From the sequence record OR352940.1: a stretch of 64,000 nucleotides of DNA, one strand, 5' to 3'. The position numbers and the translations under genes were made by a program. The stretch's first letter is position 1. The number at the start of each line of letters is the position of its first letter. Origin of the DNA: Escherichia phage AV110. This document shows positions 26,986-40,376 of the stretch, in pieces. Under the pieces are notes generated by a model. That model was not told the origin of the DNA. It saw only the letters and a program-made list of their open reading frames with translations, and did no database searches.

Positions 26986-27199
26986 AAGGAATTTCCTCAT
27001 CGGTGGCAAGGTCATATTCGACCAATTGGATAGGCTCATTAATACCATATCCACGCACAGTGATATCAGTTGTCGGATAGTTTCCGGTAATATCACCCAT
27101 TCTAAATGCTTCAGTGAATGATTGCTCGCCTGAGCAACTAAACCAGGCGGCAAAACATTTTAAAACATCTTCAGACCCTTCTATAATCAATTTAGCCAT
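26975..27199 (-). CDS. Hypothetical small acidic protein
   Basis: 74-aa ORF. Confidence 0.45.
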   Translation of the reverse strand: MAKLIIEGSEDVLKCFAAWFSCSGEQSFTEAFRMGDITGNYPTTDITVRGYGINEPIQLVEYDLATDEEIPYVD

Positions 27200-27561
27200 T
27201 ATAGACTCTCAGTAAAGGTACGAGCGATAACGTCGCGCTGCTGTTCTGGAGTCAGAGAGTTAAAGCGAACTGCATAACCGGATACACGAATGGTCAGCTG
27301 AGGATATTTTTCCGGATGCTTAACTGCATCTTCCAGAGTTTCACGACGCAGAACGTTAACGTTCAGGTGTTGACCACCTTCAATTTTAACTTTAGGTTGA
27401 TGTTCAATTTCAATTTCACGGGCATTCAAACCGTAGAAAATTTCCGGGTCTACAATAGCGTCTTCTTTAAAAGTCTTAGAGACAATAATCCGGGCCTGAG
27501 TACCGTCTTCAAAATAAATAGTGCCTTTATGCGCACCTTCAAGAATTTGATATGCTTTCAT
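27199..27561 (-). CDS. Autonomous glycyl-radical cofactor (GrcA/YfiD-like)
   Basis: 120-aa ORF; C-terminal half carries glycyl-radical motif [17 protein letters not shown] and closely matches remembered E. coli YfiD. Confidence 0.85.
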
Positions 27562-27567
27562 ATAACC

Positions 27568-27876
27568 TCAATTAGAAAATAAATTTATCCAAGTTTTTTC
27601 TTTAATCAAAAATGGGACGGAATTAAACGCCATTAAACTTTGAGTGATTAATCCCTTAAACGGCCCATCAATAAATTCCATTTTGAAATGCGGAATACTA
27701 GTCATCAACCGTGCATTAGGAGCAGTACAAAGAACCTGCTGACCTGCGAACGGGCCTTTAGTCAAACGATATCGTTTAGGTTTAAAATGGTAGATCTCGT
27801 AATTTTCTACAAGAGCCCTTTTATTGCATACTGGACTGTTATAACAATATTCAAAAACTTCAATAGTGGTCATCAT
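27568..27876 (-). CDS. Hypothetical protein coupled to the upstream P-loop NTPase
   Basis: ORF track 27568..27939 trimmed to MMTTIEVF; ATGATGA start/stop overlap with the NTPase gene. Confidence 0.5.
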   Translation of the reverse strand: MMTTIEVFEYCYNSPVCNKRALVENYEIYHFKPKRYRLTKGPFAGQQVLCTAPNARLMTSIPHFKMEFIDGPFKGLITQSLMAFNSVPFLIKEKTWINLFSN

Positions 27877-28412
27877 TGCATTCCAATCACAAAAAATTGA
27901 GGACGAGCAATACCGCCGCTGCAATATTTGCTTTTGCAACAGTGTTGGACTGTTTTGATATGGATGTCGTAAATCTTATCCATATCAGGAGCTTTAATAG
28001 GCTCGTCAATTATGTACAGAATACGAGAAAGCGTTAATCCACGGAATTTATATCCTTCATTACCAATAAAACTACGGACAGAATCAGTAAATAAACGGAA
28101 TCGAATATCATCGCTAGAATAACGAGAAAATTCTTTTTCAATGTTGCCAGCAGAAATTTTAGAATAAGCTGAAGTATTAGAAAGAACAATAACTGTTCCA
28201 CCGTCATACAGCCAATTAACAGCAAAATTAGTTACTGCGGTCGATTTACCTGATTGTCTGCCGCCGTCTAAACGAAGTGTACAGTACTGCTTGAGTACGT
28301 CTTCAAATGGTGGGGCATAACCGTTCTTACAAATTTCTTCTACTCTAGCATCAGAATGGTGTGTAAAAGCATTCATCAGGGATAGATAAGGTCCAGTTAA
28401 AAATGTTCTCAT
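27873..28412 (-). CDS. Small P-loop NTPase (Walker A GGRQSGKST, Walker B ILYIIDEP), function unknown
   Basis: 179-aa ORF; motifs read from the translation. Confidence 0.55.
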   Translation of the reverse strand: MRTFLTGPYLSLMNAFTHHSDARVEEICKNGYAPPFEDVLKQYCTLRLDGGRQSGKSTAVTNFAVNWLYDGGTVIVLSNTSAYSKISAGNIEKEFSRYSSDDIRFRLFTDSVRSFIGNEGYKFRGLTLSRILYIIDEPIKAPDMDKIYDIHIKTVQHCCKSKYCSGGIARPQFFVIGMQ

Positions 28413-28439
28413 ATTATTTCTCTTAAGGTTGGGGCCATT

Positions 28440-28684
28440 CCATGGCGCATGAATTGTCCATTTCTGTATTTACCCATTACCGCACTTGGGCTCGACCTTA
28501 TTACAGGTTGGCGGGAATCCCTCATAGAATCATGAGGTCCAGGTTGTTCCCATTTTATTTGAATGTAAATATTTTTGCCACGCGTTTACGAATTATACCA
28601 AAAAACACGTGGCAATTCACAGTATTCGGCGATTAAATGTTGATCAGCAAATTTAGATACTAAAGTCAAATTAATATAAGTCAT
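28440..28684 (-). pseudogene. Degraded partial copy of denV (N-terminal 32 codons in frame, then frameshifts and deletion)
   Basis: Hand translation [32 protein letters not shown] vs intact Den[29 protein letters not shown]; DNA alignment continues past the stop. Confidence 0.6.
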
Positions 28685-28740: not shown

Positions 28741-29043
28741 TTATTTACCTTTAATTACTTTAGCTGCTTCGATAGCCGCTTGCTGAAGGTCATCCATAGA
28801 CATACCGAATTTAGAAGCAAAGTTATCAATTTTCTTTTCGACAGCATTCAAAGGCTTGGCCTGTTTACCTTCATTAGCGCCAGGAAGAGCGAGAATACGC
28901 TCTTTGTCAATATAAAGGCTTACAAGTTTCTTACGGTCTTTATCGGACAAATCATGAAATGAATGGGCCTTTTTATTTATAGCGGCTTCTAATTTACCTG
29001 CACTCACTCGAGCTTCAGTAATAAATTCTTGATATGTTTTCAT
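28741..29043 (-). CDS. ipII: Internal protein II (capsid-targeted, MKTYQEF signal)
   Basis: 100-aa ORF matching remembered T4 IPII along its length. Confidence 0.8.
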   Translation of the reverse strand: MKTYQEFITEARVSAGKLEAAINKKAHSFHDLSDKDRKKLVSLYIDKERILALPGANEGKQAKPLNAVEKKIDNFASKFGMSMDDLQQAAIEAAKVIKGK

Positions 29044-29069: not shown

Positions 29070-29384
29070 TTATTCTTTAGGGAAGTTTTTAGAGTATGCG
29101 TCATAAAGTTTATTACCGATGCGACGGAAAACTTTAGCTGCAAAACGGTTTTCAGGGTTTTTAATCATGATTTGCATCATGTAAGTTCCTGCATCCGAAA
29201 GAGCTTCTTCATAGTACCCATTAATTTCTTTAAGAGTCCTACGTTTACCACCAGGACCATCGACAGTAATTTTCCATTTACCTGTAGAAGTGCGGCTCGG
29301 TGGCTCAACTTGTTCAATCCAAATATAACCACCTTCAACGCGTTGGTTGGCGGATTCTGCAATAAATTCTTTATACGTTTTCAT
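29070..29384 (-). CDS. Internal protein with capsid-targeting signal (MKTYKEFIAE)
   Basis: 104-aa ORF; N-terminal 10 aa is the T4 capsid-targeting sequence, body unrelated to IPII. Confidence 0.65.
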   Translation of the reverse strand: MKTYKEFIAESANQRVEGGYIWIEQVEPPSRTSTGKWKITVDGPGGKRRTLKEINGYYEEALSDAGTYMMQIMIKNPENRFAAKVFRRIGNKLYDAYSKNFPKE

Positions 29385-29447: not shown

Positions 29448-29708
29448 TTAAGCTTTACCGCCAGAAATAATTCCGAAGTTGTTAAAATCGTATCCAATAT
29501 CGTCAACATCTACTTTAGGACTTGCTACAACATAAGCAATTTCACTACGTTTTGCATAGGTGTTGATTTCTTTACCATCGCCACCTAAGAAAGAATACCC
29601 ATTACGTTTTAATGAGCCAAAGTCTTCCGCATCACCAATGAAAGCTTTAACTTTAAATTTAGGACCTTTGGCATCTGCTTCAGCGATAAATTCTTGATAC
29701 ATTTTCAT
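29448..29708 (-). CDS. Internal protein with capsid-targeting signal (MKMYQEFIAE)
   Basis: 86-aa ORF with the same N-terminal signal. Confidence 0.65.
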   Translation of the reverse strand: MKMYQEFIAEADAKGPKFKVKAFIGDAEDFGSLKRNGYSFLGGDGKEINTYAKRSEIAYVVASPKVDVDDIGYDFNNFGIISGGKA

Positions 29709-29714
29709 TTTTCC

Positions 29715-30128
29715 TTAGTAAATTGATTTACCATAGTATTTGTACCAAGTCGGACGTTGAGCAATTTTTTCATCTAAGCGTGCTTGACTTATCGCAATGG
29801 ACGCTTCGGACGGGACATAATTATTACGAAATTCGGCAGGGATGTCGGAAATATCCTGGACAGTCGTGTCCTTGATTTTGAAACCACGTTTCAAGCATTC
29901 AGCGATTAGCTCGATTTGTCGTAAACGTAAAAATTCGAGTTTGTCGTAAAAGAATGTTACGTGACCTGTGCCTAAGATAAATGTTGGAGAGATTTTAAAA
30001 TCCTTTACACGTTTACCGTTTTGAACATGTTTACGGACTGCACCAAATACGCGTGGTAATTCACGATACTCAGCCATAAGATGTTGGTCGGCCAGTTCAG
30101 AAACAAGTGTTAAATTGATACGGGTCAT
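29715..30128 (-). CDS. denV: Endonuclease V (pyrimidine-dimer DNA glycosylase) DenV
   Basis: ORF track 29715..30140; start at MTRINLTLV (30128); matches remembered T4 DenV throughout. Confidence 0.92.
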
Positions 30129-30186
30129 AATTTCCTCCAAGTAGTTGATGAATGTATAGTATCAAAACCCTTGGAGGAAGTAAACA
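30129..30186 (-). promoter_or_regulatory. PeSL-type early promoter upstream of denV (arms TTCCTCCAAG/CTTGGAGGAA)
   Basis: Minus-strand reading GTTTACttcctccaagggttttgatactatacattcatcaactacttggaggaaattATG. Confidence 0.6.
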
Positions 30187-30468
30187 CTATTTTTCTGAAG
30201 CGCCTGAAATATATTTTTCAAGACGTTGTTTCATTAGCGAGCCGTTCTTAGCGATTTCTTCCGGTTTATCGCACATACGCAACAAGGCTTCAAGCTTAGC
30301 GATATCGCTGGTACGTTCAAATTTGCGAGTATCTATCTTACTAGCAAGTTCAGAAATACGTGCTAATAGACTTTCGGCTTCAACCAAAGCTGCACCTAGC
30401 TTAGTTGCAAATGTGTCAGTAGCTTCGTTAAGAATAGATTCTGATAAAAATTCACTATATGTTTTCAT
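30187..30468 (-). CDS. Internal-protein-like small protein ([11 protein letters not shown]-terminus)
   Basis: ORF track 30187..30483 trimmed to the MKTY start at 30468. Confidence 0.55.
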
Positions 30469-30953
30469 ATATACGCTTTCCAAGTTCCTGTTTTAAATGT
30501 TGAGATTACTCGTTTCGCGCGATTAGGTGTCTGACGATACCATTTAGATTGGGCTAGATTTACTGCCGCTTCATCCCAACGTTTCTGTTGAAGCATACGA
30601 AGAGAATTAGTAAAACCGGCGACGCCTGCTACACCCATTTGGAAGACCATATTGACCAATGCACAACGACGAACTGCATCTAAAGAATCATACACCGGTT
30701 TAAGTTTAGCATTACCCAAGATTCCGCGAACGGCTTTATCAACGTCTTCATTAAATAGCTTTTCAGCCTCATCAAGGGTAATTGTACCGTTGCATTTACG
30801 GCCGATCATTCTGTCAAGTTCAGCTTTAGCTACGGCTAAAGACGGGTTCTTTGTTACTAAATGGCCAATGCCAATCGTCCAAAAGCCTTCAGTGTCTTTG
30901 TATAAAGTCAGTCTAAGACCTTCGTCATTACGAAGCATTTCAAATATATTCAT
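30465..30953 (-). CDS. e: Endolysin (T4 lysozyme e)
   Basis: ORF track 30465..30965; start at MNIFEML (30953); catalytic E11/D20/T26 context conserved. Confidence 0.95.
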
Positions 30954-40196: not shown

Positions 40197-40273
40197 TGGC
40201 CAGTGTGGAAGGATTCTAACCTTCAACCTACGGTTTAGAGGACCGCTGCTCTGTACATTTGAGCTACACACTG
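40197..40273 (-). tRNA. tRNA-like gene, anticodon TCT (Arg) by position, with atypical D-loop, T-loop and position 33
   Basis: Hand-folded cloverleaf: acceptor CAGTGTG/CACACTG, encoded CCA, anticodon stem GCGGT/ACCGT, loop CCTCTAA; D-loop lacks GG and T-loop is TTAGAAT. Confidence 0.5.
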
Positions 40274-40301
40274 TACTAACTTTTATACTATATAAATTGT
40301 T

Positions 40302-40376
40302 TGGTGACCCTGGCTGGTTTCGATCCAGCTACCTATCAGTTATGAGCTGACAGCTCTCCCATTGAGCTACAGGGCC
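40302..40376 (-). tRNA. tRNA with anticodon CAT (elongator Met or lysidine-modified Ile)
   Basis: Hand-folded cloverleaf: acceptor GGCCCTG/CAGGGTC, D-arm GCTC-AATGGGA-GAGC, anticodon loop CTCATAA, T-arm GCTGG-ATCGAAA-CCAGC, encoded ACCA. Confidence 0.75.

Follow-up and report, generated by a model that had tools for sequence, protein, structure and literature searches.

What do two small, overlapping genes at positions 27,568 to 28,412 of a stretch of Escherichia phage AV110 encode, and does their overlap make them one functional unit? The stretch (sequence record OR352940.1; 64,000 nucleotides (nt), hereafter the window) carries both open reading frames (ORFs) on its minus strand, one of 179 amino acids (a.a.) with the motifs of a P-loop NTPase and, immediately after it, one of 102 a.a. 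An earlier note on this DNA had called the first an orphan and could place neither protein in a known family. This view has to be given up, as sequence comparison has shown the two ORFs to be the Mosigvirus (RB69/JS09-type) orthologs of the phage T4 early genes vs.8 and vs.7. The pair is a rediscovery of catalogued T4 genes; it is ordinary, is not an orphan, and does not represent a new type of gene. Another copy of two catalogued T4 genes adds little by itself. What is new here is the assignment of vs.8 as a minimal terminase-type ASCE ATPase with an apparently full catalytic set, a corrected start codon, and a neighboring RNA-like element. The features of the pair are as follows.

27873..28412, minus strand: vs.8 ortholog, a 179-a.a. 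stand-alone RecA-like (ASCE) P-loop ATPase
28239..28265, minus strand: Walker A/P-loop GGRQSGKST of vs.8, residues 50–58, with the terminase-type P-loop arginine R52 (invariant DGGRQSGK; hhalign to gp17)
27999..28043, minus strand: invariant R124-G125 of vs.8 and the Walker B strand ILYIIDEP, residues 131–138, with the catalytic E137 (conservation; hhalign to gp17)
27873..27876, minus strand: ATGA overlap of the vs.8 stop with the vs.7 start (read in the sequence; T4 likewise)
27568..27876, minus strand: vs.7 ortholog, 102 a.a., with a conserved core of about 55 a.a. that has two GPFxG motifs (PHROG 2049; JS09_062 annotation; alignment of 16 homologs)

Identity of the two genes

Over 1.3 kb around the pair, the DNA is 98.7% identical to that of Escherichia phage vB_EcoM_JS09 (Mosigvirus, RB69-like), in which the two ORFs are annotated as vs.8 and vs.7. 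This region is matched by 879 phage records and, judged by its nucleotide identity, the window is that of an RB69/JS09-like T-even phage. The 179-a.a. protein matches PHROG 1488 (E-value 7e-78; residues 3–179 on profile positions 2–177 of 177) and the 102-a.a. protein matches PHROG 2049 (E-value 4.3e-48; residues 1–102), two families of unknown function. Through tblastn, the proteins were detected in 1009 and 933 phage records, respectively, with Escherichia, Klebsiella, Shigella, Enterobacter, Yersinia, Salmonella, Serratia, and others as hosts. T4 Vs.8 (NP_049732, T4p119; PHROG 1488) shares 87% a.a. identity with the core of its window ortholog, and T4 Vs.7 (NP_049731, T4p118; PHROG 2049) shares 68%. 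The order denV (a remnant in the window), vs.8, vs.7, vs.6 is common to both phages. In JS09, T4, and several other Tevenvirinae genera, vs.8 lies in the early region from e/denV to regB, directly upstream of vs.7 and vs.6. The coordinates also agree with the placement that had been given for the pair, between a GrcA-like gene (downstream) and the denV remnant (upstream).

A literature search on vs.8, vs.7, and their accessions returned no report on function, and in a genome-wide study of 2025 both genes are still of unknown function (PMC11879866). Their names in GenBank vary between "endoribonuclease," "RegB domain protein," "terminase large subunit," and "internal head protein" (e.g., MN850590, KP869104, MT682709, PQ657792). 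Such names are unreliable, and "endoribonuclease" seems to have been carried over from the annotation of regB. A few records already name vs.8 "terminase large subunit" or "P-loop NTPase."

vs.8 as a minimal ATPase

Both Walker motifs that had been recognized in the 179-a.a. ORF are found at the residues given above, and the description of vs.8 as a small P-loop NTPase with intact catalytic motifs is borne out by three lines of evidence: the invariance of the motif residues, a RecA-like model, and a low ratio of nonsynonymous to synonymous change (dN/dS). Among homologs at 38–98% identity, the invariant residues are D49-G-G-R-Q-S-G-K56, R113, R124-G125, E137-P138, K146, Y148, G177, and Q179; D136 is nearly invariant, and the N-terminal helix motif Y-L-x-L-M-x-A-F is also kept. 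The dN/dS against T4 is 0.10 for vs.8 and 0.23 for vs.7. The vs.8 family consists of small, phage-only, stand-alone proteins of about 150–185 a.a., with 55 representatives found in a search of 5.8 billion proteins and 1.84 billion representatives.

The AlphaFold2 model of vs.8 (pLDDT 82, pTM 0.83) has a RecA-like P-loop fold in a single domain, in which two N-terminal helices are followed by five parallel strands with flanking helices. Its Foldseek matches include the ATPase domains of phi29 gp16 and P74-26 TerL. Fold recognition, which had been proposed for this protein, thus returns a RecA-like ASCE fold from AlphaFold2 and Foldseek, and vs.8 is shown to be a minimal stand-alone ASCE/RecA-like ATPase made of the five parallel strands and the two N-terminal helices. 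By structure alone, the model would be called a "helicase/terminase-type ASCE domain." Small single-domain ATPases of other large phages are alike in size (about 145–175 a.a.) and share the same minimal fold (BFVD models; Foldseek E-values 5e-8 to 1e-3). These come from Proteus phage phiP4-3, Aeromonas phages Aes012 and phiAS5, Vibrio phage JSF10, Pseudomonas phages 201phi2-1 and Phabio, Acinetobacter phage 133, and others; they are only 12–24% identical to vs.8, and none has been characterized.

Profile comparisons lead from this general fold to the T4 large terminase, gp17. When a profile of 35 members of the vs.8 family was compared with 177,635 distinct PDB sequences, gp17 provided the top three matches (E-values 1.3e-5 to 3.9e-5), and the next match followed at 0.0026. 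In the hhalign alignment, R52-Q53...K56 of vs.8 fall on R162-Q163...K166 of gp17, R124-G125 on R245-G246, and D136-E137 on D255-E256. Sixteen of the 35 members gave weak, sub-threshold matches to Terminase_6N (E-value 1.4e-4 for the best member), and the window protein itself stays under the Pfam gathering cut-off of this family (12.5 bits vs. 22). In addition, one cluster of vs.8 homologs has a precomputed PF03237 match, and the window protein matches PHROG 2 (large terminase) with an E-value of 2e-4. By these comparisons of profiles, the closest characterized relative of vs.8 is shown to be the N-terminal ATPase subdomain of the T4-type large terminase gp17.

The active-site motifs of the two proteins correspond. 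The gp17 N-terminal ATPase (PF03237 Terminase_6N; PDB 2o0h, 3cpe, 3ezk) has the P-loop xxRQxGK[ST] with a cis arginine, to which GGRQxGK[ST] of vs.8 corresponds, and in both proteins an Arg-Gly ahead of Walker B is followed by hhhhDE with the catalytic Glu. In terminase ATPases, the P-loop arginine and the catalytic glutamate work in cis; P74-26 TerL has, in addition, a confirmed trans-acting arginine between helix α2 and strand β3, right before Walker B, and the T4 terminase also has an arginine at this position (PMC5727402). In vs.8, the invariant R124 falls at the corresponding place. As aligned, vs.8 keeps the complete catalytic residue set of a ring-type terminase ATPase.

Outside the active site, the two proteins differ. 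gp17 has 610 a.a. and vs.8 has 179, lacking subdomain II/lid as well as the RNase H-like nuclease domain. The chain of vs.8 stops after the fifth core strand (GMQ-COOH), whereas gp17 continues via a further strand, IIITTTP, whose TTT we take to be the coupling motif. gp17 is late, and in T4 its gene lies between genes 16 and 18–20; vs.8 is early and is not beside genes for a small terminase subunit or portal. No gp17 homolog was found in the window. As a candidate TerL, vs.8 fails on domain architecture, Pfam cut-off, gene context, and timing, and shares only the ATPase motif.

The RecA1 domains of SF2 helicases (DEAD-box DDX1/DDX20/Mss116, RIG-I, Mfd, RecG) are 8–15% identical to vs.8, and no helicase family was significant for vs.8 by sequence in the Pfam and PDB profile searches. 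Helicases need two RecA domains, whereas the 179-a.a. model has one, which rules out an SF1 or SF2 helicase. In PADLOC-DB, the best match of vs.8 was to the generic AAA region of PtuA (E-value 0.016, 12 bits, insignificant), and vs.7 had no match; an NCBIfam search with both proteins gave no match. According to the earlier note, a fold assignment to a known nucleotide-metabolism enzyme with conserved neighbors in T4 would tell against its reading. The conserved T4 neighbors are there; the enzyme is not, as the fold is terminase/helicase-like ASCE and no kinase.

Two further observations concern the vs.8 family. Residues ~157–167 (27910–27945, minus strand) form a Cys-rich loop, HCCKSKYCSGG, with a pLDDT of <50. 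The loop is confined to the Tequatrovirus/Mosigvirus clade, and other homologs vary here; it may bind a metal or be a disordered insertion. In the distant members P0059, P0063, P0066, and P0068, Walker A reads GHS or GHT and the Walker B Glu is lost, a pattern that suggests a subfamily without ATP hydrolysis. One distant relative is flanked by genes for a glycyl-radical protein and a lysozyme (contigs of only ~3 kb).

Coupling of vs.7 to vs.8

The TGA of the 179-a.a. ORF shares the ATGA at 27873–27876 with the ATG of the 102-a.a. ORF, just as had been claimed, and T4 has the identical 4-nt overlap at 64253–64256. Synteny was examined in 41 vs.8 loci from GenBank and IMG/VR. A vs.7 homolog directly follows vs.8 in 36 of the 41, across several Tevenvirinae genera; in nearly all of these 36, the start codon of vs.7 shares bases with the stop codon of vs.8 (CAATGATGA or TAATG), and the junction GGAATGCAATGATGA is found again. 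The overlap is kept even in loci whose proteins are at 35–45% identity, although part of the conservation of the junction arises because the invariant C-terminal GMQ codons of vs.8 force it. L040 is the one clear exception, with a 117-nt gap between the two genes. Apart from three loci of Melville-type phages, considered below, the remaining two of the 41 comprise one without a detected vs.7 and one that is incomplete.

That the overlap implies a co-expressed two-gene unit, as the earlier note proposed, stands in part. Co-expression is plausible, given the conserved overlap and the early expression of both genes in T4. The overlap is not distinctive, since the neighboring vs genes are equally packed: throughout the string vs.8-vs.7-vs.6-vs.5-vs.4, all junctions are gaps of 0–6 nt or overlaps. 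Co-expression of vs.8 and vs.7 is well supported; an obligate complex is not.

An alignment of 16 diverse vs.7 homologs reveals a core of ~55 a.a., (R/K)Yx(F/L)xxGPFKGxxhxCTAP...P.F..EFI.GP.KGLxTxSLIxYD, which includes the two GPFxG motifs; on either side of it, the ends of the protein are variable or missing. Searches of Pfam, PDB sequences, NCBIfam, and PADLOC with vs.7 returned no match (for Pfam and PDB, a 16-sequence profile was used). Three vs.7 homologs have a precomputed match to PF26834.1; a local Pfam scan of the window protein, T4 Vs.7, and two of the homologs that bear PF26834 returned no family, the PF26834 model probably not being in that copy of Pfam. Within residues 36–82 (27571–27876, minus strand), a unit h-x-h-x-(K/D)-G-P-F-x-G-x-x-h appears to occur twice, as an internal repeat. 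A likeness of the GPFxG motifs to a KOW/SH3-like barrel was a mere impression, unsupported by any profile search, and was dropped.

Start codon, expression, and dispensability

Most homologs begin vs.8 at a conserved M(K/R)TFLT, which by alignment falls at T4 position 64792. T4 Vs.8 is annotated with 219 a.a., and its 40 extra N-terminal residues are unconserved and out of frame in the window. The annotated extension (T4 NC_000866, 64793–64912; locus L002) corresponds to 28413–28525 of the window and overlies the RNA-like element described below. From this alignment, the T4 annotation very probably begins 40 codons too early, with the 179-a.a. form as the true product. The corresponding reading frame in the window is the following.

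28409..28525, minus strand: 38-codon upstream frame MRDSRQPVIR..., which ends ATGA on the vs.8 ATG and is fused in frame to vs.8 in the 219-a.a. annotation of T4

This frame is probably not a gene. A coding upstream ORF was rejected as an explanation of the element on three grounds: third codon positions are conserved, the core is non-coding in other phages, and base pairs covary.

In T4, vs.8 and vs.7 both have early RNA and early protein, and vs.6, vs.4, and vs.3 have early RNA and middle protein (PMC9697503 supplement). Knock-down by CRISPRi-ART in T4 gave scores of −0.11 for vs.7 and +0.37 for vs.8, both classed as "Not Fit," that is, without a fitness effect (PMC11879866 supplement).

Proposed role of the pair

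With fair though incomplete confidence, we read the two T4 orthologs as a non-essential early oligomeric ATPase and its coupled adaptor. In this scheme, vs.8 would bind and hydrolyze ATP as a homo-oligomer, which is the most likely form because terminase-type active sites take an arginine from the neighboring subunit and the R124 position is invariant. vs.7 would be made by translational coupling, in amounts probably matched to those of vs.8, and would most likely be an adaptor or regulator that joins the ATPase to a target. The pair may be an accessory in host takeover or counter-defense and not part of core replication or packaging. The terminase-type assignment points to K56A, E137A, and R124A as mutants of interest.

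Several observations weigh against this proposal. The terminase link is weak, with an E-value of 1e-5 over ~68 positions, an hhalign probability of 12%, and Pfam matches below gathering. In structural comparison, the RecA1 domains of SF2 helicases score as high as terminases. In some distant relatives, His replaces the Walker Lys and the DE pair is gone, so ATP hydrolysis would not be universal in the wider vs.8 family. The AlphaFold2 model of vs.7 is poor (pLDDT 50, from a four-sequence alignment), and of the fold recognition that had been suggested for both proteins, the vs.8 half gave a fold and the vs.7 half none. Melville-type Gelderlandviruses (three loci) have neither vs.7 nor vs.6, and vs.5 follows vs.8; vs.7 is thus not obligatory for vs.8, which these phages retain without it. 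Finally, the T4 vs.8 guides lie at 64887–64937, on the annotated start and at least ~95 nt upstream of the conserved start at 64792. Because these guides missed the conserved start, the vs.8 knock-down is uninformative; that of vs.7 is informative. The probably over-long T4 annotation misled the published guides.

L005, L021, and L043: Melville-type (Salmonella phage) loci in which the RNA-like element and vs.8 are kept and vs.7 and vs.6 are gone

A conserved RNA-like element upstream of vs.8

A strongly conserved stretch precedes the start of vs.8 and has these parts.

28430..28548, minus strand: structured-RNA-like element directly upstream of the vs.8 start (conservation, covariance model, covariation)
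28519–28537, minus strand: its 5' hairpin
28468–28516, minus strand: its three-way-junction core
28434–28446, minus strand: its 3' hairpin

Identity to T4 is 96.5% over the ~115 nt before vs.8, as compared with 84% for the vs.8 coding sequence (synonymous divergence, dS, 0.8) and 69% for vs.7. An 82-nt part of the element retains 77–87% identity in phages whose vs.8 protein is at 35–45%, and a 32-nt core (ACCTGTAATAAGGTCGAGCCCAAGTGCGGTAA) is >90% identical in almost all loci. From 5' to 3', the proposed core consists of a variable closing stem (P1), a second stem-loop (P2) of the form ACCU-GUAAnA-AGGU, a hairpin of 2–3 bp (P3, GC...GC), and an invariant joining strand, GGUAA.

Covariation was assessed in 45 distinct sequences. 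The junction-closing pair 8:41 is AU in 17, UA in 12, CG in 7, UG in 7, and GC in 2, with none of the 45 unpaired, and the first pair of P2 changes from A-U to G-C in two of the 45. The covariation score is 0.212, against 0.079 ± 0.012 for shuffled sets (0 of 500 reach 0.212). A control slid by +1 scores equally high (0.223), because the register of P1 moves by one between clades. Matched 5' and 3' flanks pair at −4.4 kcal/mol vs. −2.7 kcal/mol for mismatched ones (Mann-Whitney p = 2e-6, uncorrected for relatedness). T4-like versions carry an extra 5' hairpin (pair 5:41, CG in 8 and AU in 5 sequences) and the 3' hairpin GCCAnGGAAUGGC.

Several general tools were less informative. Single-sequence folding of the element was unremarkable (z = 0.18), and RNAalifold on plain MAFFT alignments returned fragments only, because helix registers shift between clades. 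Rfam 15 gave no match overlapping the element at E ≤ 10, either in nine sequence variants or in the window and the 17 other loci scanned, and a check for tRNA and tmRNA ruled out both. UGUAA and GGUAA may resemble the T-loop motifs of RNase P or tRNA. A literature search with fragments of the RNA sequence found nothing relevant. From the pattern of conservation and compensatory change, we take the element to be a real, unrecognized phage RNA motif. It holds 77–100% nucleotide identity while the flanking proteins fall to 35–45%, shows compensatory changes, and adjoins tRNA genes, as described next. If this is true, it would be an unrecognized non-coding RNA in the best-studied phage and could be a lead to the role of vs.8 and vs.7.

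Distribution of the element

The covariance model scores the window copy at 66.3 bits (E-value 2e-20) and finds it to be the sole copy in the 64 kb. A pattern scan of IMG/VR yielded 60 loci, mostly with one copy per genome, and 57 of them score 44–73 bits; the other three (L050, L062, L071) were discarded as chance matches. In 38 matches vs.8 lies downstream of the RNA, usually 60–110 nt and sometimes ~460 nt away, and in T4-like genomes with the latter spacing another gene probably lies between. Other matches are in unrelated phages: rV5-like E. coli phages (131–138 kb), Klebsiella phages KpCHEMY26 and Pylas (70 kb), phages of 45–48 kb and of 146–151 kb, and a Pseudomonas phage. There the region is unannotated or overlapped just by "hypothetical protein" calls, and no vs.8- or vs.7-like ORF was found in the stretches at hand. 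In 12 of 18 unrelated-phage loci, same-strand tRNA genes lie within 37–566 nt of the RNA, and in two loci a sequence like an intrinsic terminator follows it (by eye). Outside T-even phages, the motif is probably a small RNA that is co-made with tRNAs; in T-even phages, it may be either the leader of the vs.8 mRNA or an RNA of its own. A scan of 596 Gb of bacterial genomes returned 90 pattern matches, roughly the number expected by chance, and the covariance model gives a good score to only one of them, which lies on a Pseudomonas megaplasmid.

Two tandem copies of the RNA lie upstream of vs.8 in L072 (5092–5251) and L078 (9020–9180), where the covariance model confirms them, and L018, L029, and L041 also appear to have tandem copies of the core; all five are T4-like genomes of 172–178 kb. 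In the second copy, base changes compensate for each other in both P2 (GCCU/AGGC) and P3 (GUC-CGC-GAC). A link of the RNA to terminase genes, raised by a probable small/large terminase pair ~325 nt downstream in L068, was set aside, tRNA adjacency being the common factor. The window itself has only two tRNAs, tRNA-Arg(tct) and tRNA-Met(cat) (40197–40376, minus strand). The same Arg(tct) and Met(cat) tRNAs recur by the motif in the unrelated loci L051, L075, and L086, and an Arg tRNA does so in L082, L093, L097, and L102.

The position of the element raises an alternative to an ATPase and adaptor that act on some other target, namely that vs.8 and vs.7 are functionally tied to this RNA. The spacing of 60–110 nt in most T4-like loci is kept across genera, and in unrelated phages the same core adjoins same-strand tRNA genes. 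However, the RNA stands ~460 nt from vs.8 in some T4-like genomes, probably with another gene between, and the unrelated phages that carry it have no vs.8- or vs.7-like ORF in the stretches at hand. Co-location within one subfamily may be mere inherited gene order, and a single RecA domain does not make vs.8 a helicase. Such a tie is on the whole unlikely. Still a little harder to credit is the broader proposal that the element belongs to a new, widespread phage RNA class which, with vs.8 and vs.7 in T-even phages, would form an RNA-protein module that remodels, loads, or guards RNA. Were that so, the module could, for instance, counter host systems that attack tRNAs or that sense phage packaging proteins.

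Other explanations

The similarity of vs.8 to gp17 in profile and motifs could also mean that vs.8 is a terminase mimic, an early and abundant decoy of the TerL core for Avs-type STAND NTPases, or a protein that titrates terminase-binding factors. Its expression ahead of the late terminase, the knock-down without a fitness effect in the laboratory host, and a gene cluster that includes vs.4 would fit this role. vs.4 is presumably the anti-CBASS protein Acb2. The CRISPRi-ART supplementary table has two DOIs beside what appears to be the vs.4 row (PMC11879866). On the other hand, a decoy needs no invariant catalytic Glu and Arg finger, a look-alike would more likely set off such sensors than inhibit them, and PADLOC yields generic AAA noise only. 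We consider a mimic very improbable.

To the same low degree, vs.8 could descend from a duplication of the 5' region of gene 17 and have decayed since, having lost ATP hydrolysis and kept only a structural or binding function. The truncated architecture, with neither lid nor nuclease domain, would suit such an origin, as would the distant relatives in which the Walker A Lys is replaced by His and the DE pair is lost. In the T4-like clade, however, all catalytic residues are invariant at 35–98% identity, and the dN/dS of 0.10 does not resemble decay.

Two small, translationally coupled genes whose knock-down has no fitness effect also recall a phage-borne toxin-antitoxin or abortive-infection-type module. 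This idea has next to nothing left in its favor, as the PADLOC match is insignificant, the pair holds a fixed syntenic position in an early operon of ~1000 lytic T-even genomes and is not mobile, and vs.8 exists without vs.7. The weakest candidate, and one we dismiss almost entirely, is a small kinase of nucleotides or nucleosides, or some other enzyme of nucleotide metabolism: it is suggested by the small size of vs.8, by the thymidine kinase gene nearby on the same strand, and by a very weak match to uridine-cytidine kinase (E-value 0.4), but vs.8 has neither the lid nor the nucleoside monophosphate (NMP)-binding domain of P-loop kinases.

Neighboring genes

The genes around the pair, apart from the string of vs genes already discussed, are as follows.

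27199–27561: GrcA-like vs.6, 6 nt downstream of the 102-a.a. ORF (Pfam Gly_radical, E-value 2e-18)
28553..28684, minus strand: denV remnant, internally deleted, with ~29 N-terminal codons and the 3' end kept (translation; alignment to T4 denV; JS09_060)
29715–30140, minus strand: intact denV, ~1 kb upstream of the remnant

The 3' end of the denV remnant lies at a T4-type denV-vs.8 junction. Four small ORFs accompany the two denV copies on the minus strand (28741–29043, 29070–29384, 29448–29708, and 30187–30483), and their N-termini read MKTYQEFI, MKTYKEFI, MKMYQEFI or, after a short leader, MKTYSEF. The shared N-terminus resembles the capsid-targeting sequence of T4. JS09 labels for these ORFs include two internal virion/head proteins and one Ip10-like protein; the 86-a.a. 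ORF among the four has no JS09 match, and JS09 has an unassigned 36-a.a. ORF there. The gene for thymidine kinase (tk) is a few kb away on the same strand. The window differs from T4 in that three internal-protein-like genes and an intact denV are inserted upstream of the pair and a denV remnant is left behind. That three of the four small ORFs lie between the two denV copies suggests a swapped cassette.

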